Shown here piece by piece: positions 1 to 22,751 of a stretch of DNA of 26,886 nt. The translations under genes were made by a program, and so were the position numbers. The notes beneath the pieces are model-generated. The model ran no database searches and was not told where the DNA came from. It saw only the letters and a list, made by a program, of their open reading frames with translations. Every line of letters starts with the position of its first letter. Positions within the stretch are counted from its first letter, which is position 1. The DNA comes from an uncultured Polyangiaceae bacterium (lineage in GTDB: Bacteria > Myxococcota_A > Polyangia > Polyangiales > Polyangiaceae): NCBI GenBank assembly GCA_964652985.1, contig CAZZDE010000006.1, positions 42,892 through 69,777 on the forward strand, read 5' to 3'.

Positions 1-34
1 GCACCCCCGGAGGATAGACGCTATCCTGAGAGCC

Positions 35-904
35 GTGAGCCGCTTCGCCTTCGTGCCGTTCGGTGCCGACGCGCCTCCGCGTGCGGTGTGCTGCGACGGG
101 CTCGTCGACGGCACCGCGATCCATCTGAGTCACTGGCCGGGCAATCGCACGCCGTCGGACTTCAAGCGCGACACGTCGGTCGAGATCGCGCTCGCGTACG
201 GTGCGACCGGGGAGCGGTCGTCGCTCGTCGTGAACAACCACTTCGACACCGACGGCGTGCTCGCGGTCTTCTGTCTCCTCCAGCCGGAGATCGCGCGAGC
301 TCATGCCGATCTCGTGATCGGAGCGGCCGAGGTCGGCGATTTCGGTGCCTGGCCTCGGAGCCCTCGCGCGTTCTGGCTCGACGCGGCGGTGGCGAAGATC
401 TCCGGTGGCCGCTCCGACGCGGCGGCCTACGAGCGCACGCTGCCCCTACTCGCGGAGCTGTGCGAGCGAATCGACCACCGCGAGGATCTTTGGGGCGACG
501 CCTGGAAGGCGCTCACCGACGAAGACGCTCGCGCCCAGCGCGATCTGCAGGTCTCGGTCGACGGACCGATCGCGATCTTTCGTCACGCCCCGGGCGCCGA
601 CTTCTCGACCGCGGTCCTGGCGAAGCGCGCCCCGGAGAGCGCGACCCGCTGGCTGCGCGCGTTCGAGCGCCCCGACGGGACGTTCGACTACCGCTACGAC
701 TTGCCGCCATGGGCATGGGCCGATACGGTGCGTCGTCCCATTTTGGGACGACCCAAGCGCAACGCGATCGCCGCGAAGGCGCCCGGCTCGTGGGCGCTCA
801 AGGGAGACCTCGGCATGGTCGGGATCATCCGCACGCGCGCGCCCATCGCGAACGCCCCCGACGACGTCGCGCGCGCGCTGCTCACCGGCGACGCGGCGGC
901 GTGA
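35..904 (+). CDS. hypothetical cytoplasmic protein (no family recognised)
   Basis: 289-aa ORF with protein-like composition and GC3-rich codons. The GTG start at 35 may not be the true N-terminus; the gene could begin before the window. It converges on the CAP-domain gene with a 6-nt gap. Confidence 0.5.
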   Translation: MSRFAFVPFGADAPPRAVCCDGLVDGTAIHLSHWPGNRTPSDFKRDTSVEIALAYGATGERSSLVVNNHFDTDGVLAVFCLLQPEIARAHADLVIGAAEVGDFGAWPRSPRAFWLDAAVAKISGGRSDAAAYERTLPLLAELCERIDHREDLWGDAWKALTDEDARAQRDLQVSVDGPIAIFRHAPGADFSTAVLAKRAPESATRWLRAFERPDGTFDYRYDLPPWAWADTVRRPILGRPKRNAIAAKAPGSWALKGDLGMVGIIRTRAPIANAPDDVARALLTGDAAA

Positions 905-910
905 GCGCGA

Positions 911-1522
911 TCACTGGAAGTCCTGGACGCTCCAGAACTTGCCGTTGCCCATGTCGTAGAAGCCGCAGAAGACCTTCGTGTACTTCGTGCTCGACATGTT
1001 GATGTAGTGCCCGTGGGTGTTGAAGTCGACGCCGGGCCCTTCGTTCCACATCATCTGAAGGCAGCCGTCGAGCGACTGCTGCATGTTCGCGGTCGGCCAG
1101 CCGGGGCACTCGTTCTGCGCGAACTCGCTGCACTGCCCGAACGCGCTGTGGGCCTTGTTGGCGAGCGCGTCCGTCTTCGACTGTCCGTCGGCGCACGCTT
1201 CCTTCGACGACAGGCGCGCGAGCGCCGGCAAGCTGAGCGTCGCCCGGTACTGGTTGATCTTGTCGACGCAGTGCTGCTGAATCGAGCTCGAACCGGCGTC
1301 GACCACCGGCGGCGGCGAGCCGGAGTCGACCACCGGAGGGGGAGGGGGCGTGCCGGAGTCCTTCGCCGTACCGCCGTCGGTCTTGGGCGGCGGCGTGCCG
1401 CTGTCCTTGGTCGGCGTCGGCCCGCTGTCGGCGGTGGGATCGATCGTCGGGTCGGGATCGGCGGAGCAGGCGGCGGCGACGAGGGCCACCAGGGCGATCG
1501 GCAAGACGTGGATCGAGCGCAT
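911..1522 (-). CDS. CAP/SCP/PR-1 (cysteine-rich secretory protein) domain lipoprotein with a Pro-rich linker
   Basis: Signal peptide plus lipobox (LVALVAAAC). A Pro/Thr/Gly-rich low-complexity linker (TPPPKTDGG...TPPPPPVVDSGSPPPVVD). The C-terminal ~120 aa carry the CAP-domain motif pattern (HCVDKINQYRA, HNxxR-like, GHYTQMVW-like MMWNEGPG, conserved Cys). Confidence 0.8.
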   Translation of the reverse strand: MRSIHVLPIALVALVAAACSADPDPTIDPTADSGPTPTKDSGTPPPKTDGGTAKDSGTPPPPPVVDSGSPPPVVDAGSSSIQQHCVDKINQYRATLSLPALARLSSKEACADGQSKTDALANKAHSAFGQCSEFAQNECPGWPTANMQQSLDGCLQMMWNEGPGVDFNTHGHYINMSSTKYTKVFCGFYDMGNGKFWSVQDFQ

Positions 1523-1635
1523 TCCCCGTCACGATGCACGCGGCGCGCCAGCCGGGCGGCGCGAGAATCGCTTGGATTTCCGTCGGATTTTGGGGGCGAT
1601 TGCCCCCGGTCAGTGGATCTTTTCCCCGGTCGCGC

Positions 1636-3285
1636 TCACTGCACGCCGAACGCGGCGTACGGGGAGCTCGGCACCACCCGCACGTCGTCGGTGGGCAGGG
1701 GCAGCTTGTCCCAGGCCTCGGGGTGGTCCGGCGGTACCAAGTTGGTATTCGCGGTCTTCGCTCGATACATCTCGGCGTCGTACATGACGAGATCGCCGAC
1801 CGCGTAGGCGATCGCGGGTTGCCCGGGGGCGAGCGTCGCCTTGGCGCCCCACGCCGACAGCCGCGCGACCGGGACGTCGGGGTAGCCCGACGCGACGAAC
1901 GCGAGCACCACGACCGGGCCGTTGACGTTGCCCTTCGTCGTCACGTTGGCTTTCACCGTGTCGGGACCCATGCCGGCGACGATCGCGCGGCTGCCCTCCC
2001 AGTGGTTCCCGTCGAAGAGGATTGGTCCCTTCAACGCGGCGTTGATCCCGAAGACGACGCCGGGGTCTTTCGCCGTCGGGTCGAGCGGCGTGTACGCGAA
2101 GTCGAGCCCGCGGAAGAAGTTGCCGAGCAGCGTCACCGACGACGGCGCGGCCGACGTCCCATTCAGGTACCCGCCGAGGCTCCGCGTGTCGGCGAAGTAG
2201 TTGTCGTGGAAGGTCACGTTGCGGTCGCCGTCGCCGGTCTCAGGTGCGCTGAAGAAGCTCAGGAACGTCCCCGCGCCGCCGATGACGACGTTGTGATCGA
2301 GCTCGATGTTCCCCTCGCGGGTGTGCACCTGGCTCGCGCCGTCCTGGTAGTTGCCGAAGTTGTCGAGCCAGTGCAGCGCGTTGAACGCGACCGTGTTGTG
2401 GTGCACGTGGGTCTTGTCGCCGAGATCCTGGATCTGGAGCCCCTCGCTCCCCGACCGGATCAGGCGGTTGTTGTAGACCTGGAGGTTCGGGAGCAGGTTG
2501 CCCGGCGGCGCGCCGGTCCAGCCGAAGTAGAACGCCTCGGACCCGGAGTCGTGGACGTACGTGTCGTGGACGCGGACGTTCGCCATCGGCTTCGGCGGAT
2601 CGTTCGCGGCGCGCGCGTTCAAGAGGCGAATCCCAGCGAACCCGGCGCGCGTGACCTCGACGTACTCGAGCTCGAAGTCGGTCGCGTCGCCGACGCTGAT
2701 CCCCATGTGGGTGTACTGCCCCTTGGCGTATCCGTCGTCGCTGAGGAACCCGTACTTGCCGCGCGACGTGGCATACGCGCCGCAGCGGTGACCGGGGAAC
2801 GCCGCATCGCCGGTCTTCGCGTCCGGATCGTAGCGCCCGGTGAGGATCCAGTTCGCGCCGCCGCCCATCGACCAGACGTAGTTGGTGTTGTCGCCGGGGG
2901 GACCGACCTGTACCTGCCCACCGACGTTCGTGATGACGAGCGGGCGCTTCGCGTCGCGCGTCGGCAGGTTGGTGATGCTGAGCTGCTTGTACTTGCCGGC
3001 CGGGATGTAGAGCCGATCGAGCGTGGCCCAATCGACCGAAGGGAACGCCTTCTGGATGTCCCCGATCGCGTACGCGCCGTTCGTCGCCGGTGGGAGCGTG
3101 AAGGTCGTGACCGGCGGCGGAAAATGACCGAATGGCTCGCACGACGTCGGCGGTCCGCCGTCGGTGACGACCGCTCCGTCGGAGACGGTCGGCGAATCGA
3201 CGCCAGCGTCGTTGCCCGGCGTGTTCGACGAAGAGTCACCGCATCCGAACGTGGCGATCGCTGCCGCAACGAGGATCCTGCGCAT
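1636..3285 (-). CDS. secreted right-handed parallel beta-helix lipoprotein (polysaccharide lyase/hydrolase-like) with a C-terminal CBM5/12-type carbohydrate-binding domain
   Basis: Lipoprotein signal (AIATFGCGDSS). Repeated beta-helix rungs with N/H/D ladders (VHDTYVHDSG, VHHNTVAFN, LDHNVVIGG, FHDNYFAD). The last ~60 aa match the CBM5/12 (chitin-binding type 3) pattern AYAVGDLVMYDAEMYRAK....PPDHPEAWDKL. Confidence 0.8.
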   Translation of the reverse strand: MRRILVAAAIATFGCGDSSSNTPGNDAGVDSPTVSDGAVVTDGGPPTSCEPFGHFPPPVTTFTLPPATNGAYAIGDIQKAFPSVDWATLDRLYIPAGKYKQLSITNLPTRDAKRPLVITNVGGQVQVGPPGDNTNYVWSMGGGANWILTGRYDPDAKTGDAAFPGHRCGAYATSRGKYGFLSDDGYAKGQYTHMGISVGDATDFELEYVEVTRAGFAGIRLLNARAANDPPKPMANVRVHDTYVHDSGSEAFYFGWTGAPPGNLLPNLQVYNNRLIRSGSEGLQIQDLGDKTHVHHNTVAFNALHWLDNFGNYQDGASQVHTREGNIELDHNVVIGGAGTFLSFFSAPETGDGDRNVTFHDNYFADTRSLGGYLNGTSAAPSSVTLLGNFFRGLDFAYTPLDPTAKDPGVVFGINAALKGPILFDGNHWEGSRAIVAGMGPDTVKANVTTKGNVNGPVVVLAFVASGYPDVPVARLSAWGAKATLAPGQPAIAYAVGDLVMYDAEMYRAKTANTNLVPPDHPEAWDKLPLPTDDVRVVPSSPYAAFGVQ

Positions 3286-3303
3286 CGCCTCAGCGTAGCG
3301 TGT

Positions 3304-3651
3304 TCAGCGCGTCTGGAGATCCTGCGCTTCGTAGATCGTCACCTGATCGAGCTTCTTCTCGGCGATGGCGGTGCGAAGGATCTCACGGGCGCGCGCGGCG
3401 TCACGAGCGGGCACGTTCACGGTGTAGCCGAGCGAACCGCCCGCCGACCACTCGATGTGGTTCTCGTTCATGAGGGTCACGATCTTCGCCCCGGTCACGT
3501 CGTCGGAGCCGAGGTAGCCGGCGACCGGCTCCCACTGGGCCGACGCGGCCGGCGCGGGGGTGGAGTCCACCGGCGTCGGATCGGTCGAAGCGCAATGGAT
3601 CGAGGTGGCGGCGAAAACGAGGGCGAGGGCAACGTGGCGAGGCGAGAGCAT
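3304..3651 (-). CDS. small secreted protein, hypothetical
   Basis: 115-aa ORF with an N-terminal signal peptide (VALALVFAATSIHCAST) and protein-like composition. Same strand as the two secreted genes downstream of it. Confidence 0.5.
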   Translation of the reverse strand: MLSPRHVALALVFAATSIHCASTDPTPVDSTPAPAASAQWEPVAGYLGSDDVTGAKIVTLMNENHIEWSAGGSLGYTVNVPARDAARAREILRTAIAEKKLDQVTIYEAQDLQTR

Positions 3652-3682
3652 GCCGTTTCTACGCCGCCGAGCGGCGAACGAT

Positions 3683-4564
3683 CTACGCCGGCAGCAACGA
3701 CTGTCTCCACGCCTCGAGGAGCGCGCTGTCGTCGACGTCGTGCGGGTGGAACCCGGGGCGGAAGTACTTCAGCCACCCGCGGCCGAGGCTCCACATCCCG
3801 GCGGGATCGACGAAGAGGAAACGACCCAGCTTCGACCACTCTTCCGCGGACGTCAGGCACCCGTCGGCGTGCATCATCACGACCTGGTGCTCGAGCACCT
3901 TCACCCAGAAGAACGCCGACGCGACGAGCATCATCCCCATCCGCTCGACCTCGGTTCCTCCGGCCGCACGGAACACGTCGAACGCGACCGACTTGTGCTC
4001 GCTCTCTTCGGCGGCGTGCCAGCGCCAGAGCGCCGCCATGTTCGGGTCGGCGCCTTCCAGGTTCTTCGGATCCCCCAAGACCAAGAGCGCCATCGACGCC
4101 GTGTAGTGCTCGAGCGCGCACGTCACCGCGAGCTGTGCGCGCTTCGGTAGCACCGTCTTCGCGAAGCGAAGCAGCCGCTCCACCTTCTTCTCGAGCCGCG
4201 CGACGGGATATCCGCTGCTCGCGAGGTGCGCGTTGTACCCGTCGTGCTCGCGACCGTGGATGCCCTCTTGGGCAGTGAAGAGCGCGACGTCGCGCTGGAG
4301 CTCGGCCTCGGCGTACTGCCGGTGCGCGCGCACCGACCCGAGGAAGAAGCGCTCGCCCGCGGGGAAGAAGATGGAGAGTCCATCGAAGTAGATCGTCACC
4401 GCGCGTCCGCGCCCATGCCAGTACTTCGGCACGCCATCGAGGGAGAACCGGAGGTTGCGCACTTCGAGCATGCGTCGATGATGAGGTGGCGCGTGCCCGA
4501 GCGGCAGGTTAGCGTGTGCCAAGTTCTTGTCATTTGGGGCCATGGCGAAAGGCGAGGCATTCAT
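3683..4564 (-). CDS. predicted metal-dependent hydrolase (COG3687 / Pfam PF10118-like)
   Basis: FFPAGERFF and HAAEESEHK motifs and overall His/Glu-rich helical composition, typical of the PF10118 metal-dependent hydrolase family. The start may be the internal MAPNDKN (4543) or MLEVRNL (4471), since the longest ORF overlaps the AraC start. Confidence 0.65.
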   Translation of the reverse strand: MNASPFAMAPNDKNLAHANLPLGHAPPHHRRMLEVRNLRFSLDGVPKYWHGRGRAVTIYFDGLSIFFPAGERFFLGSVRAHRQYAEAELQRDVALFTAQEGIHGREHDGYNAHLASSGYPVARLEKKVERLLRFAKTVLPKRAQLAVTCALEHYTASMALLVLGDPKNLEGADPNMAALWRWHAAEESEHKSVAFDVFRAAGGTEVERMGMMLVASAFFWVKVLEHQVVMMHADGCLTSAEEWSKLGRFLFVDPAGMWSLGRGWLKYFRPGFHPHDVDDSALLEAWRQSLLPA

Positions 4565-5552
4565 CCCGGCGATCCACGCGCTCCACCTCGCCGAGGTGAC
4601 GTCGCGCTACGGCGTGTCGTGCGCGCAGCTGCTCGCCGGGTCGGGCCTCTCGGAGAGCGATCTCTCCGAGCCCGACGAGACGATCTCGATCGCCGTCGCC
4701 GAGCGGCTCGTCGAGCGCGCGCGCACGCTCACCGGCGAGCCCGCGATCGGGCTCCTCCTCGGCATGCAGATGCGGATCTCGGCGCACGGCTACCTCGGGT
4801 TCGCGGCGATGGTCGCGTCGACCGTCGGCGAGGCGCTGGAGATCGCGACGAGGTTCGCGCCGACGCGAACCAACGCGCTGGCGTTGCGTCTCGTCGTCGA
4901 CGACGAGACGGCCGCGCTCGTAATCGAGGAGCGGGCTTCGCTCGCCGGAGCGCGCGAGGCGGTCCTCTTCGCGCTGATCGAAGGCATCCGCCAGATCGGG
5001 CAGGCGCTCACCGGCAAGACGCTCACCGGCTCGGCCGAGGTCACGTTCGCGGAGCCTCCGTGGTTCGGGAAGCTCGCGGGCTTCGCAGGTGCCGGCCGCG
5101 TCCGCTTTCGCCGGCCGGAGAACCGCATCCTCTTCGATCGTGCGGTGCTCGATCTCCCGCTCGTACTCGCCGATCCCGCCGCGTTCCGCCTCGCGACGGA
5201 GCAATGCGAGCGCGCGCTCGCCGCGATTCGCGACGCGACCCGAGTCACGTCGAAGGTGCGCTCGCTGCTCGTGCGGCGCGGCGGGCTCGAACGCTCGCTC
5301 GACGACGTGGCGCACGTACTCCACGTGTCGCCCCGGACGCTCAAGCGGCACCTCGCCGCGGAGGGTACGACGTTCAAGGCGCTCCACGATGCGGCGCGAC
5401 GCGAAGCCGCGGTTCGCCTCGTCGAGAGCACCGATCTCACGCTCGAAGCGATCGCCGAGCGGCTCGGCTACTCCGACGTCGCGAACTTCACGCGAGCGTT
5501 CCGTCGCTGGACCGGGAAGACCCCCGGCGCCGCGCGCCGATCGTTGCGGTGA
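4542..5552 (+). CDS. AraC-family transcriptional regulator with an N-terminal Arabinose_bd-like (PF12625) ligand domain
   Basis: C-terminal double HTH typical of AraC/XylS (SLDDVAHVLHVSPRTLKRHL...LGYSDVANFTRAFRRWTGKTP). The N-terminal ~170 aa resemble the AraC_binding_2/Arabinose_bd domain. It is divergent from the PF10118 hydrolase. The start is 4527 or 4542. Confidence 0.85.
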   Translation: MAKGEAFIPAIHALHLAEVTSRYGVSCAQLLAGSGLSESDLSEPDETISIAVAERLVERARTLTGEPAIGLLLGMQMRISAHGYLGFAAMVASTVGEALEIATRFAPTRTNALALRLVVDDETAALVIEERASLAGAREAVLFALIEGIRQIGQALTGKTLTGSAEVTFAEPPWFGKLAGFAGAGRVRFRRPENRILFDRAVLDLPLVLADPAAFRLATEQCERALAAIRDATRVTSKVRSLLVRRGGLERSLDDVAHVLHVSPRTLKRHLAAEGTTFKALHDAARREAAVRLVESTDLTLEAIAERLGYSDVANFTRAFRRWTGKTPGAARRSLR

Positions 5553-5555
5553 GCG

Positions 5556-6353
5556 TCACGGGCGCACGACGCGCGCCATGCTCGTCACGTCGAAGAGTCG
5601 GCGCTGATTGCCGTCGCGGCTCCACTCGCCCTCGACGACGTACTCGCCGCCGACCGGCTCCGCATCGAGGTCGAGCGGCACGAGCGCGGGAAACGCGTGC
5701 GTCCCGTCCGCCGCGGAGAACGCGGCGTGGGGCGGCGGGCACTGCGAGCACGCGGCGCCCGGTGGGCAGGGTGCGCACTTCGGCGGTGGCGCGCGGAAGG
5801 TCACGAGCATCCGCAGCATCTGTCCGTCGCCGTAGCCCTCGGCGTCTTCGAGGCGGAGCACGCCCTGCGGCACGCCGTGCGTCACGAGCACCGTCGGCGG
5901 CGGTAGACCGAAGTCGGTGCCGGACGGGTCGGTGATGTCCACCACGCGCGCGATGCGCTCGGCTCGCAGCTTGGCGAACCCGCTGCTCGAGTCGAACGAG
6001 CCATCGAGGACGTAGACGGCCCCGACGGTCATGCGCGAGCCGCCGAGCCCTTCGACCGCGAGCTTCGCGTCGCCAGAGGTGCTCTTGAACGTCGCGTAGT
6101 CGAGGCAGACGGAACAGCTCGCCCCAGCGGGGCACGGCGGGCACTCGGGGACCGGAGCGATGAACACCGCCGCGACGCGGACGGCGACGCCCGGCTGCGC
6201 CGCGTTGGCGGCATCCACCGAGAGCGTTCCCGGTGGGATGCTGGACACCGTCGGGATGCTCGGCGTCGCGTCGCTCGGTGCGCGGGCGTCCTTGCCGTGA
6301 CCACACGCGGCGACGACGAGGAGGAAGGCTGCGAACCAGATCCGAGCGCGCAT
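5556..6353 (-). CDS. lipoprotein with internally duplicated CxxCPxGAxCSxC modules, hypothetical
   Basis: Start chosen at MRARIWFAAFLLVVAACGHG (lipobox). Two ~55-aa repeats each begin with P(E/K)C(P/A)PCP(A/P)GA(S/A)CSxC. It is the last gene of a minus-strand run with the MTase. Confidence 0.6.
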   Translation of the reverse strand: MRARIWFAAFLLVVAACGHGKDARAPSDATPSIPTVSSIPPGTLSVDAANAAQPGVAVRVAAVFIAPVPECPPCPAGASCSVCLDYATFKSTSGDAKLAVEGLGGSRMTVGAVYVLDGSFDSSSGFAKLRAERIARVVDITDPSGTDFGLPPPTVLVTHGVPQGVLRLEDAEGYGDGQMLRMLVTFRAPPPKCAPCPPGAACSQCPPPHAAFSAADGTHAFPALVPLDLDAEPVGGEYVVEGEWSRDGNQRRLFDVTSMARVVRP

Positions 6354-6384
6354 CGAGACGGACAACGGGCGGCCTCGTTCGATC

Positions 6385-7122
6385 TTACGCCGAGGGCTTG
6401 CGAACGACGATCGTGCGCATCCCACGGCGATCTTCGCTGCGCTCGATCTCGAAGCCGGTCTCGCGAAGGCGCTTCTCCGCCCAATCCGGGGCGATCCGCA
6501 GCTTCTTGTAGTCGCTGACCTTCATCTCCCACCCATCGAAGCTGCGGCGGTGGATCACGTCGTACACCCGCACGTGGTCGCCTTCGTACTCGAGGAAGCA
6601 CGTGAAGACGGTGCTCGCGTCGGCGCGGACCGGGATGAAGCGCGCCGCGCCGACGAGCTCACGCGTGAAATCGCGAAACGCCACGATGAGCTTCCCACCC
6701 GGCGCGAGCAGACGAAACGTCTCGCGAAAGAGTCGCTGCACGTCTCCGAAGCTCGAGAGGTGCGTGAGCGTGTCGCCCATGCAGACGACGAGCTCCAGGT
6801 TTCCTTCCGCGCCGGCGACGTAGTGCAGGATGTCGTCGCACACCGTTCGCACCGGCAGGCCCTTCGCGTTCGCCGCGAGCTCGGCGAGGAGCGACTTCGA
6901 GAGATCGACGGCGGTGATCTCGAAGCCGAGCTCGGCCAACGGGAGCGTCTGGAATCCGGTGCCCGCGCCGACGTCGAGCGCGCGCTTCGAGGCGGCCGGC
7001 GCGATCCCGAGCTCGACGAACAGCGCCTTGTTCTCCGACACGCGCTCCGGCAGACCGCCGAAGAGCCACGAGTAGTGTTCCGCGAGGTGAGTGTCGTAAT
7101 GCTCCGCGATGCCCGCGCTCAT
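6385..7122 (-). CDS. class I SAM-dependent methyltransferase
   Basis: Motif I LDVGAGTGFQTLPLAELGFEITAVDLS, acidic post-I and motif IV-like LLAPGGKLIV. The true start is MSAGIAEHYD. Its ATG (7122..7120) overlaps the TGA (7121..7119) of the upstream lipoprotein gene as ATGA. The 651-aa ORF in the track is an upstream read-through artefact. Confidence 0.8.
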   Translation of the reverse strand: MSAGIAEHYDTHLAEHYSWLFGGLPERVSENKALFVELGIAPAASKRALDVGAGTGFQTLPLAELGFEITAVDLSKSLLAELAANAKGLPVRTVCDDILHYVAGAEGNLELVVCMGDTLTHLSSFGDVQRLFRETFRLLAPGGKLIVAFRDFTRELVGAARFIPVRADASTVFTCFLEYEGDHVRVYDVIHRRSFDGWEMKVSDYKKLRIAPDWAEKRLRETGFEIERSEDRRGMRTIVVRKPSA

Positions 7123-8255
7123 TTGAGCGCGATCGGAGGAAGCACGCCGATCCAGGCCTTCATCTCGTTCGGGTAGACGCACACCTTGAGCGCGGAGTCC
7201 TTGCACGCGGAGTCGCCGACGAGGACGTTGCACTGCGACGCCACCGCCTGGTTCGCTTGTGCGATGGGCATGCCCCACATCCGCGCGCACGCGATGTTGA
7301 CGAACGTCTGCTCGTCGTCGACGCGCTTCTCGTCGTCGCGCGCGACCGTGAAGCCGGGCTTCTCGCACGCTTGCTTCGCGAAATTCAGCGCGACCTGATC
7401 GTCTTTGACGAACGTGCCATCGGCCTTGGAGTGGAGGAGCATCGCGGGGCCCTGCGCGACCGACGCCTGACCATTGCAGCGCGCCGGGATGCGCGAGCGG
7501 TACGGGCCGTAGGTGACGAGATCCGGCCGCCCGTCGTTGTCGGCGTCGGTCGTGCGGAAGAACGGGTACTGGCCGATCGGGTACATCGCGACCTGGCCAC
7601 CCTTGAACGAGACGATCTGGCCGATCGGGTCCTTCGGACCTTCCTTGGTCTGATCGTGTCCGACGATGATGAGCTCCTCTTCTCCGTCGCCGTCGAAGTC
7701 GAAGACGGTCGTCGAGTTGAACACGACGCGGTCGCTGTCGTGCGCGGCGAAGCTGCGCGTCGCCGTGCGCGGGCTCTGCCCGGGGAGCGCCATCGAGGCC
7801 TTCGCGCCCGTCTTGTCCACGTGGATCGCGAACGCGACGGCGGAGTACCCGTGCTGCTCCTCCTTGAGATCCTGCACCCCGAGGCCCCACGCGCCTCCGC
7901 TCTTCGTGCGCACGCACTCGGAGAAGATGCGGCGACCCTCCTCGCCGAAGCTTCCGGCGTGGCTCATGGGATCCTTCGAGTCCGCGAGCTCCTTCAGGCG
8001 AGCGAGCGCCGGCGCGCGGTCGGCGTCGAGCGCCTTGCACGCGTCGAAGCCGATGGCGCCGCTCGAGACGGGAGCCACGACGCCGGTAGCCGCCGCCGAC
8101 GACGTCGCCGGTGCGCTGGTCGACGCGCTCGGCGTCGCCGAAGGCGTGACCGGAGGCGTGTTCGTCGCGCCGCCGCCGCACGCAGCGAACGAGAGCGGGA
8201 GGAGCGCGAACGGCGCGAGGACGAGGATCGAGAGCTTGCTTCGCATGGGCGGCAT
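7119..8255 (-). CDS. lipoprotein with FG-GAP/VCBS-like Ca-binding repeats, hypothetical
   Basis: Signal plus lipobox (MRSKLSILVLAPFALLPLSFAACGGG) and a Thr/Ser/Pro/Ala linker. The two motifs FDFDGDGEEELIIVG and TDADNDGRPDLVTYG resemble FG-GAP (integrin-alpha beta-propeller) blades. The start is MPPM at 8255 or MRSK at 8246. Confidence 0.65.
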   Translation of the reverse strand: MPPMRSKLSILVLAPFALLPLSFAACGGGATNTPPVTPSATPSASTSAPATSSAAATGVVAPVSSGAIGFDACKALDADRAPALARLKELADSKDPMSHAGSFGEEGRRIFSECVRTKSGGAWGLGVQDLKEEQHGYSAVAFAIHVDKTGAKASMALPGQSPRTATRSFAAHDSDRVVFNSTTVFDFDGDGEEELIIVGHDQTKEGPKDPIGQIVSFKGGQVAMYPIGQYPFFRTTDADNDGRPDLVTYGPYRSRIPARCNGQASVAQGPAMLLHSKADGTFVKDDQVALNFAKQACEKPGFTVARDDEKRVDDEQTFVNIACARMWGMPIAQANQAVASQCNVLVGDSACKDSALKVCVYPNEMKAWIGVLPPIALK

Positions 8256-8327
8256 TTCTCCCACGACCTGGCGGGTGAGGGAAGACCGATCGTGCGGAAA
8301 CGCGGTAGAGTCGGCCGCGGAGGAACG

Positions 8328-17872: not shown

Positions 17873-18292
17873 TCACTCGTAGGTGCGCGCCTCGAGCACG
17901 TTGCCTTCGGGATCCTGGAAGTAGAACCAATGACGCGAAGTGCCGCGAGCGCCGAACGAGGTCTCCCCCACGCGGTGCATCTTGACGTTCGCTTGCTTCA
18001 AGCGCGCCGCGAGCGCTTCGAACTCCGCCTTGTCCATCCCGAGGCACACGTGGTTCATCGGCTTGCCGGCGGCCGTGGGCTTGTCTTCGCCGGTGAAGTG
18101 GGCGGCGAACTGCGCGGCGAGCGACGGCGTGAGATCGAGGATCGACGATTCGCTCAAGCGCACGCTCGGAAACGGTGCAGTCCCGGCGAGGAACTCGTCG
18201 CCGCGAACGGCGGGAAGCCCGACGACCTTCGTATAGAACTCGAGCGCTCGCTTCGCGTCCTCCACCCAGAGCACGACATGGTCGATGTGCAT
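17873..18292 (-). CDS. VOC-family (glyoxalase/bleomycin-resistance/dioxygenase) protein
   Basis: MHIDHVVLWVEDAKRALEFYTKVVGL ... HVCLGM ... WFYFQDPEGNVLE. The paired betaabbb modules with His/Glu metal ligands are typical of VOC. Confidence 0.8.
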   Translation of the reverse strand: MHIDHVVLWVEDAKRALEFYTKVVGLPAVRGDEFLAGTAPFPSVRLSESSILDLTPSLAAQFAAHFTGEDKPTAAGKPMNHVCLGMDKAEFEALAARLKQANVKMHRVGETSFGARGTSRHWFYFQDPEGNVLEARTYE

Positions 18293-18354
18293 GGGCTGAA
18301 TCTACGCGAGCACATCGCGCCGGTCATCGCCTGAGCTGTACTCTTCTCGAACGC

Positions 18355-20925
18355 ATGGCGACCACGAAGAAGAAAGCGTCATCACCCAAGGGCACGACCA
18401 AGTCCGGCGCTGCCAAGAAGTCGACGAAGCCGGGCTCGAGTCCGACCGCCCCCGCCGTGGTCGTTCACGCGGGGCAAGAGCTCGTCGCGATCGACGGTGG
18501 GTCGATGGTCATGGGCACCTCGATGGACGATCTCCTCGCCATGGTCCGCGTCGTGGCGCCCGCCGAGCTCGCCGAGCTCGAGCACGACGGGTTCGGAGAA
18601 TCTCGCCCTCCGCGCATCGTCGCGGTCGCACCGTTTCTCCTCGGACGATCGCTCGCGGATCGCGCGAAGCTCGGCCTCGAGGCGAACGGCGATCTCGCGG
18701 AGCAACTGCGCGCGCTCGGGCTCCGACTGCCGTCGGAGGCGGAGTGGGAGTGGGTCGCGCGCGAGGGCGGCGCCACGCGCTTCGTGTCCACTCGGCCCCC
18801 CGAGGGCGCGTTCGCGAAGACCAAGGACGTCCTCCGTGCGCTCCGCACCGAAGAGAACGGGTGGGGCGTGCGGCAGCTAAACGACGAGGGCGAGATCGTC
18901 GCGGATGCGTGGCACCCGTCGCTCGCCGGCGCACCACCGACGAGTGCCGCCTGGGAGCCCGAGCGCGGGCCGGGCGTCACGCGCACGGGGCACACCGCGT
19001 TTCAGGGATCGTCCGAGATCCGCGCGCTGTCGGCTGCGCATCGGGTCGCGCATCGCGGCGACGTCTCGGTTGCCGCGTTTCGCGTCGCGCGCGACGTGCC
19101 CGGGGCCGCCGCGCCTGCGCCCGACGCGTCGTTGCTCGCGACCTCCGTGCGCGACACCGTCGCCGCGCTGTCCGGGTCGGCGAAGAAGGAGCGAACGTTC
19201 GCGTTCGAGGTCCTCCGCATGCTCGGCCGCGACGGTCTGCACGACGTCGAGGCCGACGAGCTGGTCGCCCCGCTCCTCGCCGTCGCCGGCTCGCGCGACA
19301 AGTCCGAGGTCGCCGCCGCACTGCGCGCGATCGCCGACATCGCGTGCCGCGGACGTCGCGAGCTCGTCGAGGCGCGGCTCGCGCGTCGCGAACATCCGTT
19401 GCGAACCGCGCTGCTGCCCCGCATGGCCCCGCTGCTCGATCGCCTCGACGATCGAGATCCGGCAGTGCGCGCGGCTGCCGCGTGCGTCGCATGTGCGCTG
19501 CCCGAAGGCGCCGCGCGCCTCGCCGCGCGCGCGGCCGTCGAGGAGGAGCCCAACGCGCTGGCGAGTCTCGTCCTCGCGCTCGCGTGTCGGGGTGACGTCG
19601 CGCGGGCTCGCGACGTGCTCGCCGCGAATCCGCCGCATCCGCCGATCGCGCGCGCCACCGCCGCGCTCGCGCTCGCGGTGGGTGGCGCCATGCCCGAGCC
19701 GCCGTCCGTCGCGTTCGTCGCGGCGCTGAGCGAAGGCCTCGGCCTCGCCGCGACGGAGGCCTCGATGCCGTGGCTCGGCCCCGGCTTCACCGCGGTGATC
19801 CTATCCGTCGTCGAGCGCGGCGGCCCCGCGCTGCGGGACAGCGCGATCGAGGCGCTCGTGAAGGCCGCGCACGCGGCGGAGTCGTGGCCCGCGGTGGGGC
19901 TCCTGAAGTCGGCGCTCGCGCTCGCCTTCGGACCGCCGAGCGCGACGCCATCCTCGGAGCTGCGCAACGCTGCCACGCTGACGCCCGCGGTGCGGGCGCT
20001 CCTGACCGCGGCGAGCGAGCCCAAGCTCAGCCCGGTGGCAGGGCACCTCGGCTTGCCGTCGTACGCGGTTCCGGGCGATCTCGCCGTTCGGCGGATTTGG
20101 CTCGGGCTCGAGGCCCCGACCGCGGCGGATCGAAGCATCGAGACGGACTGGGAAGGTGCGCGGCGCACGTGGTCGATCGCGGCTTGGCTGCGCGCAGTCT
20201 GGGACAAGCACCGCCTCGCGTTCGCGCCCGATCACGCGCGTGCGCACACGGCGATGCAGCAGGAGGTCGCACCGGTGGTCGCTGGTTGGGATCCCATCCT
20301 GCGGCTCGAGCTCTCGCTCGACGGGATGCGCATCGTGATGCTCCCCGAGTTGGCGCCCGCGGTCGTAGCCCCCGCGGCGCTGGCCCACGACGCAGAGAAG
20401 GCGCGCGACGTCATGCAGAGCGCGCTCGCGCGCGCGCTTCGCGCTTCGCCAGCGAACCTCATCGACTGGAAGCTCGTCGAGATCGGGCTTCTCCTTCACC
20501 CCGGCGGCGACCTGCCGGCAGGGCTCGTCGAGGCCATCGCGGGGCGCTTCTACATGCTCTACGGCGATCACATGCTCGCGGCGGTCGGAGCGATGTCGCC
20601 CGCGCAGCGCGAGCAGTTCTTGGTGGAACGCTTCGAACGAGCTGTCGACGCGTACCCCAGCTCGCTCCTCGGCGTTTCGCTGCACGGCTTCGTGACGCGG
20701 CACGCGTTGCCACAGGTCGTTGCGCACCCCTCCGAGCGAACGGCTCGCGCGCTCGTCCGCGTCGCCGGGCGCGGGCCGATGCGGCGCGAGTGTTGGACGG
20801 AAATCGAGGCGGCGCGGGTTCCCGCGATCACGTCGGCGCTCGCCGCGCTCGGCCCGTTTCGCGAGCTCGATGCGAACGCGTCGCCGGAGCAGGTCCAGCG
20901 GTTCGTCGACGCGTACGTGGCGTGA
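18355..20925 (+). CDS. FGE-sulfatase (SUMF1-like) domain protein with a Lys-rich histone-H1-like N-tail and a C-terminal HEAT/PBS-lyase-like repeat region
   Basis: N-tail MATTKKKASSPKGTTKSGAAKKSTKPGSSPT. FGE-domain signatures (VAIDGGSMVMG, RPPRIVAVAPFLLGRSLA, LRLPSEAEWEWVAREG, WGVRQLNDEGEIVADAW). Then ~550 aa of Ala/Leu/Arg-rich alpha-solenoid with HEAT-like units (DKSEVAAALRAIADIA, DRDPAVRAAAACVACAL). Confidence 0.75.
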   Translation: MATTKKKASSPKGTTKSGAAKKSTKPGSSPTAPAVVVHAGQELVAIDGGSMVMGTSMDDLLAMVRVVAPAELAELEHDGFGESRPPRIVAVAPFLLGRSLADRAKLGLEANGDLAEQLRALGLRLPSEAEWEWVAREGGATRFVSTRPPEGAFAKTKDVLRALRTEENGWGVRQLNDEGEIVADAWHPSLAGAPPTSAAWEPERGPGVTRTGHTAFQGSSEIRALSAAHRVAHRGDVSVAAFRVARDVPGAAAPAPDASLLATSVRDTVAALSGSAKKERTFAFEVLRMLGRDGLHDVEADELVAPLLAVAGSRDKSEVAAALRAIADIACRGRRELVEARLARREHPLRTALLPRMAPLLDRLDDRDPAVRAAAACVACALPEGAARLAARAAVEEEPNALASLVLALACRGDVARARDVLAANPPHPPIARATAALALAVGGAMPEPPSVAFVAALSEGLGLAATEASMPWLGPGFTAVILSVVERGGPALRDSAIEALVKAAHAAESWPAVGLLKSALALAFGPPSATPSSELRNAATLTPAVRALLTAASEPKLSPVAGHLGLPSYAVPGDLAVRRIWLGLEAPTAADRSIETDWEGARRTWSIAAWLRAVWDKHRLAFAPDHARAHTAMQQEVAPVVAGWDPILRLELSLDGMRIVMLPELAPAVVAPAALAHDAEKARDVMQSALARALRASPANLIDWKLVEIGLLLHPGGDLPAGLVEAIAGRFYMLYGDHMLAAVGAMSPAQREQFLVERFERAVDAYPSSLLGVSLHGFVTRHALPQVVAHPSERTARALVRVAGRGPMRRECWTEIEAARVPAITSALAALGPFRELDANASPEQVQRFVDAYVA

Positions 20926-21040: not shown

Positions 21041-22033
21041 ATGCGCACATTTGTCTTCACGGCGTTCGCGACCGGGGTGATCACGGTGCTGGCGTGCGGT
21101 GGCTCGGCTTCAGTGACCGGCCCCGACGACGCCTGTGGTCAGTATTACGATGCGCTCACCGCGTACGCCAAGCGCTGCTCGTCGAGCACCCTCAGCGGCG
21201 AGCGCAGCGACTTCCTCGCCATCTGCAAGGCCGCCCTCGCGGCTCCGGGCACGTCGATCACGCAGGGCATGCTCGCCAACTGCGCGAGCGCAGTGAACGG
21301 CACCACCCTGTGTTCGTTGAACGACATCGCCGCGTGCAAACCGGGGCCGGGATCGCTCGCGGACGGCACCGCGTGTGGAAGCGACGCGCAGTGCGCGAGC
21401 GGCGACTGCAAGACGACGACGACGAACGGTCTCTCGTGCGGCACCTGCGTGAAGACCGCGAAGGAAGGCGAGGCCTGCAACGTTGCGCCGACGAACACTG
21501 CGTGCGCGACCGACCTGCGATGCGACAAGAACGTGTGCGTGAAGAACGTCACGATCCCGCCCGGTGGCACGTGCTCGTTCACCGGGAGCCCGGGCTCGAA
21601 CTGCGCCGCGGGGACGGCGTGCAACGCGCCGCCGACGCCGAACGCGACTGGGACGTGCGCGCCCATCCCGAAGGAAGGGCAGCCGTGCACGACGACCTGC
21701 GACACCAACCTCGTGTGCTCCAACTCGGTGTGCATCGCCCGCGTCGACGTCGGCGCTGCCTGCACCACCAACAGCCAGTGCAAGAACGGTCTCTACTGCG
21801 ACACGACGACCAAGACCTGCGCCACGACCAAGATCGCGAAGGTCGGAGAGCCCTGCGGAACGACGGGCACCAAGTGCGACGCGGGCTTGGCGTGCACGTC
21901 GAACGGGACGAGCTCGACCTGCGTCGCGTTGAAGCGGAACGGCGAGGCGTGCACCGCCAACGACCGGTGCGCGGAGTTCCTCAACTGCATCAACGGCGTC
22001 TGCGGGATCAACGATCCCGGTCTGTGCAAGTGA
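21041..22033 (+). CDS. Cys-rich tandem-repeat lipoprotein (myxobacterial Cys-rich-repeat type)
   Basis: Lipobox VITVLACGGS, then ~8 tandem modules of ~35-40 aa with a G-x-(A/T)C-x(5-7)-C-x-(S/N)GxC-x(n)-C-x-x-C pattern. Examples: DGTACGSDAQCASGDCK, EGEACNVAPTNTACATDLRCDKNVC, VGAACTTNSQCKNGLYCD, NGEACTANDRCAEFLNC. Confidence 0.7.
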   Translation: MRTFVFTAFATGVITVLACGGSASVTGPDDACGQYYDALTAYAKRCSSSTLSGERSDFLAICKAALAAPGTSITQGMLANCASAVNGTTLCSLNDIAACKPGPGSLADGTACGSDAQCASGDCKTTTTNGLSCGTCVKTAKEGEACNVAPTNTACATDLRCDKNVCVKNVTIPPGGTCSFTGSPGSNCAAGTACNAPPTPNATGTCAPIPKEGQPCTTTCDTNLVCSNSVCIARVDVGAACTTNSQCKNGLYCDTTTKTCATTKIAKVGEPCGTTGTKCDAGLACTSNGTSSTCVALKRNGEACTANDRCAEFLNCINGVCGINDPGLCK

Positions 22034-22172: not shown

Positions 22173-22751
22173 ATGATCAAACCCCACCTCCCGATGCTCG
22201 CGCTCGCCGTCGTCTTCTCTGCCGGTTGCAAGAAGGACACGCCGACCCAAACGACGACGACCTCGGCGACGGTCGCGGCGACCACGACGGCTGCCGCAGC
22301 ACCGAAGAAGGGCGAATGCCAAGCGGGTTACACGAAGGTCGAGCAGATGGCCTTCTGCATCAAGCTGCCGGAGGGCTACACCGCGGACCCGCCCACGAAG
22401 GGGGACGATCCGAAGGAGCCGTTCTCGGTCGACTTCGAGAAGAACGGAGACAAGATCGATGGATTCACGTGTCACGTCACCACCGACACGTTCGCCTCGG
22501 TGAAGGAGGACAACGAGAGCTTCGTCGACAAGACGAAGCACGACGTGAAGGACACGGGTGACCTCCTCGGCGGCAAGGGTTGGTACTTCTTCTCGTCGAC
22601 GAAGGGCGCCAAGGAGGGTGGCACGATCGGCGTCTACGTGCAGGTGCCGAAGTACGTGGTCGTCTGCGAGCAAGCCGGCAACGGAAACTGGAAGGGCTAC
22701 CAGGCGACGCTCGAAATCTGGAAGACGATCATGCCGCTCGAAGGCGGCTGA
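22173..22751 (+). CDS. lipoprotein, hypothetical (Lys/Asp/Thr-rich)
   Basis: MLALAVVFSAGCKKD lipobox and a Thr-rich linker (TQTTTTSATVAATTTAAAAP). 192 aa. Confidence 0.6.
   Translation: MIKPHLPMLALAVVFSAGCKKDTPTQTTTTSATVAATTTAAAAPKKGECQAGYTKVEQMAFCIKLPEGYTADPPTKGDDPKEPFSVDFEKNGDKIDGFTCHVTTDTFASVKEDNESFVDKTKHDVKDTGDLLGGKGWYFFSSTKGAKEGGTIGVYVQVPKYVVVCEQAGNGNWKGYQATLEIWKTIMPLEGG

Follow-up and report, generated by a model that had tools for sequence, protein, structure and literature searches.

A degenerate FGE-like and HEAT-type protein of a Polyangiaceae bacterium is homologous to genes linked to Rhs-deaminase toxins

As a rule, the gene directly 3' of the tip of an Rhs toxin is its immunity gene (PMC3150448; PMC3482391). 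HEAT-repeat proteins serve as immunity proteins of Rhs toxins (Imm-HEAT, including the E. coli rhsA-yibA pair; Zhang et al. 2012), with the HEAT protein YibA neutralising RhsA-CT, and Tsi3 is an immunity protein of the type VI secretion system with a fold like that of the formylglycine-generating enzyme (FGE; bioRxiv 10.1101/2021.05.21.445229). Among toxin tips, the Pput_2613-like family corresponds to BaDTF3/DddB, a double-stranded DNA (dsDNA) cytosine deaminase toxin (PMC13346905; PMC3239186). Here we describe an 856-amino-acid (aa) protein encoded on a 26,886-nucleotide (nt) stretch of DNA from an uncultured Polyangiaceae bacterium (the window), which consists of a Lys-rich tail, a degenerate FGE-like domain and a long helical solenoid. 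Profile and pairwise comparisons identify both of its modules as homologous to genes linked to Rhs toxins with deaminase tips. With moderate confidence, we interpret the protein of the window as an orphan toxin binder of the immunity type, probably directed against a BaDTF3-like deaminase, and not as a sulfatase-maturing enzyme.

Loci were scanned in one genome per species and were retrieved only via the motif PSEAE[WL]EW and similarity to the window protein. An Rhs/YD-repeat protein is encoded in nine of nine such loci from Sorangium, Polyangiaceae or Polyangia, in the following arrangements:

L016: Rhs-deaminase gene, 2096-6130 (+); helical gene, 6142-7824 (+); FGE-like gene, 7779-8672 (+), which ends a same-strand array
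L014: Rhs-deaminase gene, 12414-15530 (-); helical gene, 10532-12415 (-); convergent FGE-like gene, 7749-8672 (+)
L015: Rhs-deaminase gene, 12498-16457 (-); helical gene, 10581-12494 (-); convergent FGE-like gene, 7845-8672 (+)
L031: Rhs-deaminase gene, 11388-15452 (-); helical gene, 9642-11384 (-), and a second, 5986-8037 (-); two convergent FGE-like genes, 7815-9607 (+)
L017: Rhs-deaminase gene, 3219-7223 (+); no helical gene; FGE-like gene on the same strand after a gap of ~0.7 kb, 7791-8657 (+)
L019: Rhs-deaminase gene, 1489-5451 (-); no helical gene; tail-to-tail FGE-like gene, 234-1475 (+)
L022: Rhs-deaminase gene, 8535-12665 (-); no helical gene; tail-to-tail FGE-like gene, 7512-8474 (+)
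L029: Rhs-deaminase gene, 2310-4493 (-); no helical gene; tail-to-tail FGE-like gene, 974-2302 (+)
L024: Rhs-deaminase gene, 3-3698 (+); two genes for fused FGE-like and helical proteins of the same architecture as the window protein, 3948-6671 (+) and 7683-10460 (+)

Locus L014 comes from Sorangium cellulosum So ceGT47 (NZ_CP012670.1, 3347883-3364437). The Rhs proteins have Gly-rich N-termini and share 34-51% identity with the L016 copy; eight of the nine are ~1040-1380 aa long, measured as stop-to-stop open reading frames (ORFs), and the L029 copy runs off the end of its contig. In the tips that follow the DPxGL core, H[ST]E and PC(P/V)xCH are kept in all nine. When five tips were compared with the Pfam Pput2613-deam model, four scored above the cut-off of 25 (25.6-34.7 bits) and the L019 tip scored 18.2 bits.

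The genes for homologs of the window protein lie close to these tips. A helical gene is found directly 3' of the Rhs gene, on the same strand and within 8-65 nt, in L016 (8 nt; profile E = 1.6e-35), L031 (~20 nt; 8e-29), L014 (~60 nt; 3.6e-34) and L015 (~60 nt; 6e-34), and in L019, L022 and L029 the 3' ends of the Rhs and FGE-like genes are 2-55 nt apart. Metagenome contigs add an FGE-like gene convergent to the Rhs gene in L052 (tail-to-tail) and L060, and one convergent to a helical gene in L057. The immunity position, adjacent to the 3' end of the Rhs gene, is occupied by stand-alone or fused homologs in L014-L017, L019, L022, L024, L029, L031, L052 and L060. Because a second Rhs gene of L019, which has a different tip, is followed by an unrelated 218-aa gene, the linkage appears to be specific to the tip type. 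The nine Rhs toxins are flanked by homologs of the two modules and not by known Imm10/DddBI genes, and the L015 array includes a further helical protein of 615 aa (8712-10559, -). We found no mention, in the literature searched, of a linkage between this module family and Rhs toxins with dsDNA deaminase tips.

The FGE-like domain of the window protein shares 33-37% identity with the Rhs-linked FGE-like proteins (BLASTP, E from ~1e-11 down to 8e-21). For the C-terminal domain, an hhalign comparison of the clade that contains the window protein with the Rhs-linked helical proteins gave a probability of 99.75% and E = 2.6e-27 across 489 of ~587 columns, among them the RRxWLGLxPPG segment; the match to the stand-alone proteins reaches approximately residue 800. 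This segment belongs to a family signature of the pattern RRxWLGLxPPGxxDR, which takes the forms RRRWIGLAPPGPVE and RRRWLGLAPPGPLE in the Rhs-linked stand-alone proteins.

By its sequence, the 856-aa protein is a member of a large, previously unannotated family without a curated model: no Pfam or NCBIfam model covers the protein or the family, and NCBIfam matches nothing meaningful. Word-index searches returned four and then nine matches, apparently swamped by low-complexity words, and yielded three homologous clusters besides its own. An exhaustive HMMER search with a whole-family profile built from four proteins returned 6,670 proteins with E < 1e-3, of which 54 fell below 1e-30. Fused proteins of the window type, with an FGE-like domain followed by a helical one, include P0002 (46% identical to the window protein over 98% of its length), P0003, P0004, P0008, P0016 and P0023. 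In a further group (P0012, P0018, P0021, P0022 and P0026) the fusion is preceded by an additional N-terminal domain of ~135 aa and then a Lys-rich linker (e.g., APAKKKTAKAKAKKAPTKKTAKKATKKATAKKAPP). This additional domain, MANVMAIVSKAVF...LFLVTVRPP..LWLVAILE.P...LQTPRVLT, is conserved at these N-termini (L010, L011 and L026-L028) and has no match in Pfam or the Protein Data Bank (PDB). Stand-alone FGE-like proteins of ~260-300 aa and stand-alone helical proteins of ~560-640 aa also occur, and in P0063 and P0100 the domains stand in the opposite order. That split, fused and permuted versions all exist indicates that the two modules work together.

The features of the window gene and protein are as follows:

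18355..20925, + strand: complete coding sequence of the 856-aa protein, with the stop codon (20923-20925) included
18293..18354, no strand: divergent intergenic spacer of 62 nt between a glyoxalase-family gene (minus strand) and the 856-aa gene, with a GC content of 0.61
18355..18456, + strand: basic, disordered tail rich in Lys, Ser, Thr, Pro and Ala, residues 1-34, MATTKKKASSPKGTTKSGAAKKSTKPGSSPTAPA (from composition and AlphaFold2)
18457..19104, + strand: degenerate, Cys-free FGE/C-type-lectin-like fold resembling PvdO and Tsi3, residues 35-250
18640..18699, + strand: short variable loop, residues 96-115, in place of the middle subdomain of ~60-70 residues of true FGEs (from hidden Markov model (HMM) alignments)
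18724..18753, + strand: RLPSEAEWEW, the motif most strongly conserved across the FGE superfamily; it does not vary in alignments A1 and A3 and lines up with RLPTEAEWE of FGE, TvpA and PorK
19000..19020, + strand: FQGSSEI, residues 216-222, aligned to the Cu-binding Cys pair of FGE (SFLCHESYC) in alignments to T. curvata FGE (6s07/5nxl)
19126..19929, + strand: approximately eight HEAT-like helical hairpins, residues 258-525, including LDDRDPAVRAAAA at residues 364-376
20089..20175, + strand: family signature RRIWLGLEAPTAADR and, after it, the single beta-hairpin of the C-terminal domain, residues 579-607 (invariant residues in A1)
20176..20922, + strand: C-terminal helical part of the solenoid domain, residues 608-856 (AlphaFold2 pLDDT 76-97)

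The three-part anatomy of Lys-rich tail, FGE-like domain and alpha-solenoid proposed in an earlier note on this DNA proved correct. The note had also left room for a later in-frame Met as the true N-terminus, and the position of the start codon decides whether the tail is part of the protein. The stop-to-stop frame extends upstream to 18133, with an in-frame GTG at 18175 and the first ATG at 18355, and the region 18133-18354 is partly antisense to the glyoxalase-family gene (17873-18292, minus strand; Pfam Glyoxalase, 8.5e-13). The GTG was rejected as the start, as it would entail a 118-nt overlap with this divergent gene and both the homolog and gene callers favour the ATG. The coding sequence is identical on five other contigs, on which gene callers picked the same 856-aa product; P0002, with similar upstream context, starts with MAAKKKS; and the tail codons have a third-position GC content of 0.84, versus 0.61 overall in the spacer. 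ATG 18355 is therefore likely the true start, and the tail part of the protein. A sigma-70 consensus and a clear Shine-Dalgarno sequence were looked for in the spacer and not found.

The FGE-like assignment is barely visible to a single-sequence Pfam scan, in which FGE-sulfatase (PF03781) scores 15.2 bits (E = 0.017; cut-off 23.3) over profile positions 106-233 only. A profile of 55 sequences of the N-terminal domain family, when compared with solved structures, recovered PvdO at 3.8e-19, T. curvata FGE at ~1e-11 and human SUMF1 at 1e-7, which bears out the FGE (C-type-lectin-like) fold that had been claimed for residues ~40-260. The catalytic Cys pair, which the earlier note could not discern, is indeed missing. 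In a locally weak alignment, the catalytic Cys positions of FGE fall on F216/Q217 and I222, hydrophobic or polar residues; since residues 1-330 contain no Cys, the absence of the Cu-binding pair holds irrespective of this alignment. The HMM alignment also lacks the GN of the GNVWEW loop. Given the missing Cys pair, the deleted middle subdomain and the score below the Pfam cut-off, the domain is predicted to be non-catalytic, in agreement with the suspicion already voiced.

The loop that replaces the middle subdomain is also the only strain-variable region of the gene. The strain variant L082 differs from the window at five of the 2,571 nt of the gene, all located at 18640-18697 (codons 96-115) and four of them nonsynonymous. 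Over most of the shared 14 kb the two sequences diverge by ~0.1%, and the mismatches are clustered, five in the FGE-like loop and 15 at the 3' end (13226-13445) of a vault-like gene. This clustering suggests short recombination tracts or local diversifying selection.

Residues 258-856 are helical save for one beta-hairpin. The HEAT-like character that had been assigned to the C-terminal region is supported by tandem antiparallel helical hairpins that form a solenoid in the model and by Pfam HEAT_2 matches at E <= 0.01 in 13 of 44 family members, with the qualification that regular hairpins span only residues ~258-525 and the remainder is a family-specific helical domain. In the window protein itself, Pfam HEAT stays below threshold (E = 0.58). 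Alignment A1 has R579, R580, L585, D592, R593 and W606 as invariant residues in and around the signature. A first AlphaFold2 model built from four sequences was unusable, with a predicted local distance difference test (pLDDT) score below 50 in the N-terminal domain, and was replaced by a 44-sequence model with mean pLDDT 89.8 and a predicted template modelling score (pTM) of 0.85. In this model the FGE-like domain and the solenoid appear to be packed as one body, and the high pTM is compatible with such a compact arrangement. The C-terminal remainder of the model falls among HEAT/ARM solenoids (alphaRep 12.8; CpcE/F 11.0 and 9.7; YibA 9.1), and Foldseek searches against the PDB returned generic HEAT/ARM matches, such as importin-beta and AP2-beta, and nothing specific for residues 530-856.

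Compared with the systems described above, the window protein resembles Tsi3 in having an FGE fold that lacks the catalytic Cys pair and in that PvdO is its best structural relative. Tsi3 acts by protein-protein binding, and both tsi3 and the genes for relatives of the window FGE-like domain are found tail-to-tail with toxin genes as well as in arrays of paralogs. This likeness was judged from shared features (the Cys-less fold, the similarity to PvdO and the opposite-strand arrangement). Unlike Tsi3, the window domain lacks the middle subdomain, is fused to a 600-aa solenoid and has no toxin neighbour, and the toxins linked to its relatives are Myxococcota Rhs proteins with deaminase tips rather than Tse3. 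YibA is only ~270-280 aa long, whereas the C-terminal domain of the window protein comprises ~600 aa and includes the RRxWLGLxPPG hairpin and an extra helical part; the partners of Imm-HEAT proteins are Ntox34 or Tox-REase-7 and not Pput_2613-like deaminase tips. The likeness is one of fold. PvdO (Pseudomonas aeruginosa, PDB 5HHA) acts in pyoverdine maturation in the periplasm; it has ~280 aa and the complete fold, whereas the window protein has no signal peptide (by eye), no pyoverdine context and no middle subdomain, and carries the solenoid fusion. With true FGEs (SUMF1 and the enzymes of T. curvata and S. coelicolor) it shares the fold and the RLPxEAEWE motif; it differs in lacking the Cys pair, the GN of GNVWEW, the middle subdomain and a sulfatase neighbour, and in its score below the Pfam cut-off. 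A sulfatase gene near an FGE gene is common, not obligatory. The role proposed here for the window family, blocking a BaDTF3-type deaminase tip, is that of DddBI/Imm10 (PMC13346905; PMC3482391), a small jellyroll DNA mimic of an entirely different fold. If the window family is an immunity family, it would represent a solution independent of DddBI.

The homologs at the 3' tips of Rhs genes, together with the precedents of YibA and Tsi3, point to an immunity-type function. We propose that the window protein is a cytoplasmic, non-catalytic binder composed of two modules, the degenerate FGE/C-type-lectin-like domain and the ~600-aa HEAT-type solenoid. The loop surface of the former and the solenoid would capture a toxin domain delivered by a neighbouring cell, most plausibly a BaDTF3-like DNA deaminase, and neutralise it stoichiometrically; the window copy, which has no adjacent toxin gene, would be an orphan immunity gene with its own promoter, and the Lys-rich tail might hold the protein on DNA, where a DNA deaminase acts. 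Toxin binding, the identity of the toxin and the role of the tail are inferred, and the function of the orphan copy likewise rests on inference. The cytoplasmic location is predicted from a reading of the sequence by eye, in which no N-terminal hydrophobic segment is visible; this would be in keeping with a target that resides in the cytoplasm, for example a DNA deaminase (PMC13346905).

One relative has a suggestive neighbour. Deoxyuridine (dU) is the product of cytosine deamination. In L008 (Kofleriaceae metagenome-assembled genome, JAWKQV010000006.1), the P0003 gene is translationally coupled to a gene of the Endo_dU/DUF99 family (12649-13212; 1.9e-54): the start of the latter lies 4 bp ahead of the P0003 stop codon, in an ATGA overlap. 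Enzymes of this family cut DNA at dU (PMC11585767). This coupling was seen at one locus only. Together with the strain differences clustered in the loop, it fits the immunity reading in a circumstantial way.

Several observations weigh against that reading. No toxin gene adjoins a member of the window protein's own fused clade at any of ~10 distinct loci (the window, L006, L008, L009, L010, L011, L023, L035, L050 and L065), and a Pfam scan of the genes downstream of the fused relatives found no toxin. In the window itself there is no Rhs or other recognisable toxin gene, and thus none of the adjacency expected of an immunity gene. The fused-clade loci have no conserved neighbourhood, except that the Kofleriaceae orthologs in L009 and L035 have upstream synteny in common, which is more readily explained by stable inheritance than by a mobile immunity cassette. 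In pairwise comparison, the C-terminal domain is only distantly related to the Rhs-linked proteins (E ~1e-5). The characterised BaDTF3 immunity protein, the jellyroll DddBI/Imm10, has a different fold, and for both module families binding or neutralisation is itself a proposed role. Genes of the conflict-system or toxin type do occur several kb away from two fused relatives, adjacent to neither: in L006 (1-3881, -), ~6 kb upstream of P0002, one for an EAD1-TPR-PNP_UDP_1 protein, and in L008 (1-1407, -), ~8.6 kb upstream of P0003, one for a 1,732-aa eCIS_core (DUF4157) protein.

The absence of a toxin gene beside any fused-clade member examined and the synteny between L009 and L035 are what the main rival would predict, namely that the protein is a scaffold or adaptor with a non-toxin partner, such as a regulator or an assembly factor, which has common ancestry with the Rhs-linked proteins and was recruited in Sandaracinaceae- or Kofleriaceae-type lineages. 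The moderate divergence of P0002 also agrees with such a role, as does the generic nature of HEAT solenoids and of FGE folds as modules for interaction. The fused-clade loci, however, have no recurrent neighbour of any kind and hence give no pointer to another partner, and the only contextual signal in the family is the linkage to Rhs-deaminase genes. We regard a scaffold as possible and hold it tentatively.

A different emphasis is placed by the tail. Residues 1-25 contain eight Lys and residues 1-38 carry a net charge of +8, against a Lys content of 1.5% in the C-terminal 594 residues, and AlphaFold2 predicts residues 1-30 to be disordered (pLDDT ~31). The earlier note saw in this histone-H1-like tail a sign of nucleoid or polyanion association. 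The tail is real; its conservation is limited. The search for homologs of the same architecture that the note had called for did find FGE-like and helical fusions; the tail did not follow them throughout, being cut down to three Lys (KKK) in P0002 and missing altogether in both P0003 and P0004. Segments with at least six Lys per 25 residues before the FGE-like domain occur in 12 of 125 family members, mostly as the linker after the additional N-terminal domain; clearly H1-like linkers of the AKKA type are present in P0021 and P0018, and P0022 has a basic linker rich in Lys, Arg and Ser. A Lys-rich segment is thus recurrent (~10% of relatives) and not defining, and it is unconserved among the closest relatives. 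Outside the family, L026 (4207-6939) and L027 (4560-7301) encode, just 5' of the gene for an FGE-like protein with the additional N-terminal domain, an M1-aminopeptidase-like protein of ~910 aa (assigned by reading of the sequence) that has C-terminal HEAT-like repeats and ends in the Lys-rich tail KKPAKGAKKAARKKAASPAKKSARR; Lys-rich tails seem to be common in such genomes.

Two readings draw on the tail. In the first, which extends the immunity reading and which we consider doubtful, the protein would be a nucleoid-tethered orphan immunity factor, whose H1-like tail parks the HEAT and FGE-like trap on the chromosome and which in some lineages is coupled to dU repair through Endo_dU, as in L008. 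In the second, that of the earlier note, nucleoid or polyanion association through the tail would be the main job of the protein. The charge, disorder and Lys content of the tail and the recurrent basic linkers speak for it, but the tail makes up ~30 of 856 residues and is not kept among the closest relatives, the Rhs-linked helical protein in L031 starts with a similar MATKKK, and the A-rich codons may partly reflect a translation-initiation preference in a genome of ~69% GC, the base composition of the window. We therefore judge it unlikely.

It is very improbable that the protein is a binding or neutralising module of an NTP-dependent conflict system, comparable to the FGS domains found in vWA-MoxR or STAND ternary systems, or the target of a diversity-generating retroelement. 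The Pfam matches of the 20 scanned window ORFs include no vWA, MoxR, STAND or reverse-transcriptase family, and PADLOC defence models gave zero matches. The variable region of retroelement targets lies at the C-terminal end (PMC7159879), whereas the five L082 substitutions (C>A, three G>C and G>A) are in the middle of the fold and are not adenine-specific; a retroelement was accordingly rejected as the cause of the clustered strain differences. Finally, an active FGE or an EgtB- or PvdO-type oxidase, which the overall fold and the RLPSEAEWEW motif might suggest, has next to no chance of being correct given the Cys-free residues 1-330, the deleted middle subdomain, the score under the Pfam cut-off and the absence nearby of the DinB domain that EgtB requires, of a sulfatase gene and of a pyoverdine gene.

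The genes around the 856-aa ORF encode a glyoxalase, a protein of the zinc-dependent alcohol dehydrogenase family, a GerE/LuxR-type regulator (assigned by Pfam GerE on the identical contig L001), a Cys-rich lipoprotein, a histidine kinase and a major-vault-protein-like protein. The Pfam scan of the 20 window ORFs, which detected no sulfatase family, toxin gene, Rhs or kinase partner, agrees with the statement in the earlier note that no sulfatase or kinase partner is adjacent. Directly 3' of the 856-aa gene lies that of the Cys-rich predicted lipoprotein (330 aa; 21041-22033, +; Dickkopf_N 6e-8, EB module 5.5e-4), followed by a lipoprotein-like ORF of 192 aa without a Pfam match (22173-22751, +); a link of either to the 856-aa gene is not evident. 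The vault-like gene (11400-13487, +; 695 aa) matches Pfam MVP_shoulder at 4e-26 and Vault_3 at 1.4e-7. It is preceded by two ORFs without a Pfam match (9886-10872 and 10879-11391) and followed by a class-III aminotransferase gene, and the order of genes around it is kept in the strain variant L082.

For annotation, the label "FGE-sulfatase/HEAT hypothetical" is better replaced by membership in a large unmodelled family, the sole contextual signal of which is that it is linked to Rhs toxins whose tips are dsDNA deaminases of the BaDTF3 type. Should the scaffold explanation be true, the window protein would be an ordinary scaffold with a partner other than a toxin. The window protein joins modules of two kinds known from immunity proteins, FGE-like and HEAT-type, in a single chain. 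If the family does have an immunity role, it would add to the immunity solutions for DNA-deaminase toxins a third one, unrelated in structure. Such toxins are the source of the DddA/DddB base editors, and the family would then offer new natural inhibitors for the control of base editors; in the nucleoid-tethered form, if that were true, it would constitute an anti-deaminase defence module not described before, and its members a new class of natural protein inhibitors for BaDTF3/DddB-type base-editing deaminases. An immunity role would also extend the FGE-fold (Tsi3) and HEAT (YibA) immunity themes to Myxococcota, with the modules used as a fused or a split pair, and would provide concrete orphan immunity genes in social, predatory bacteria.

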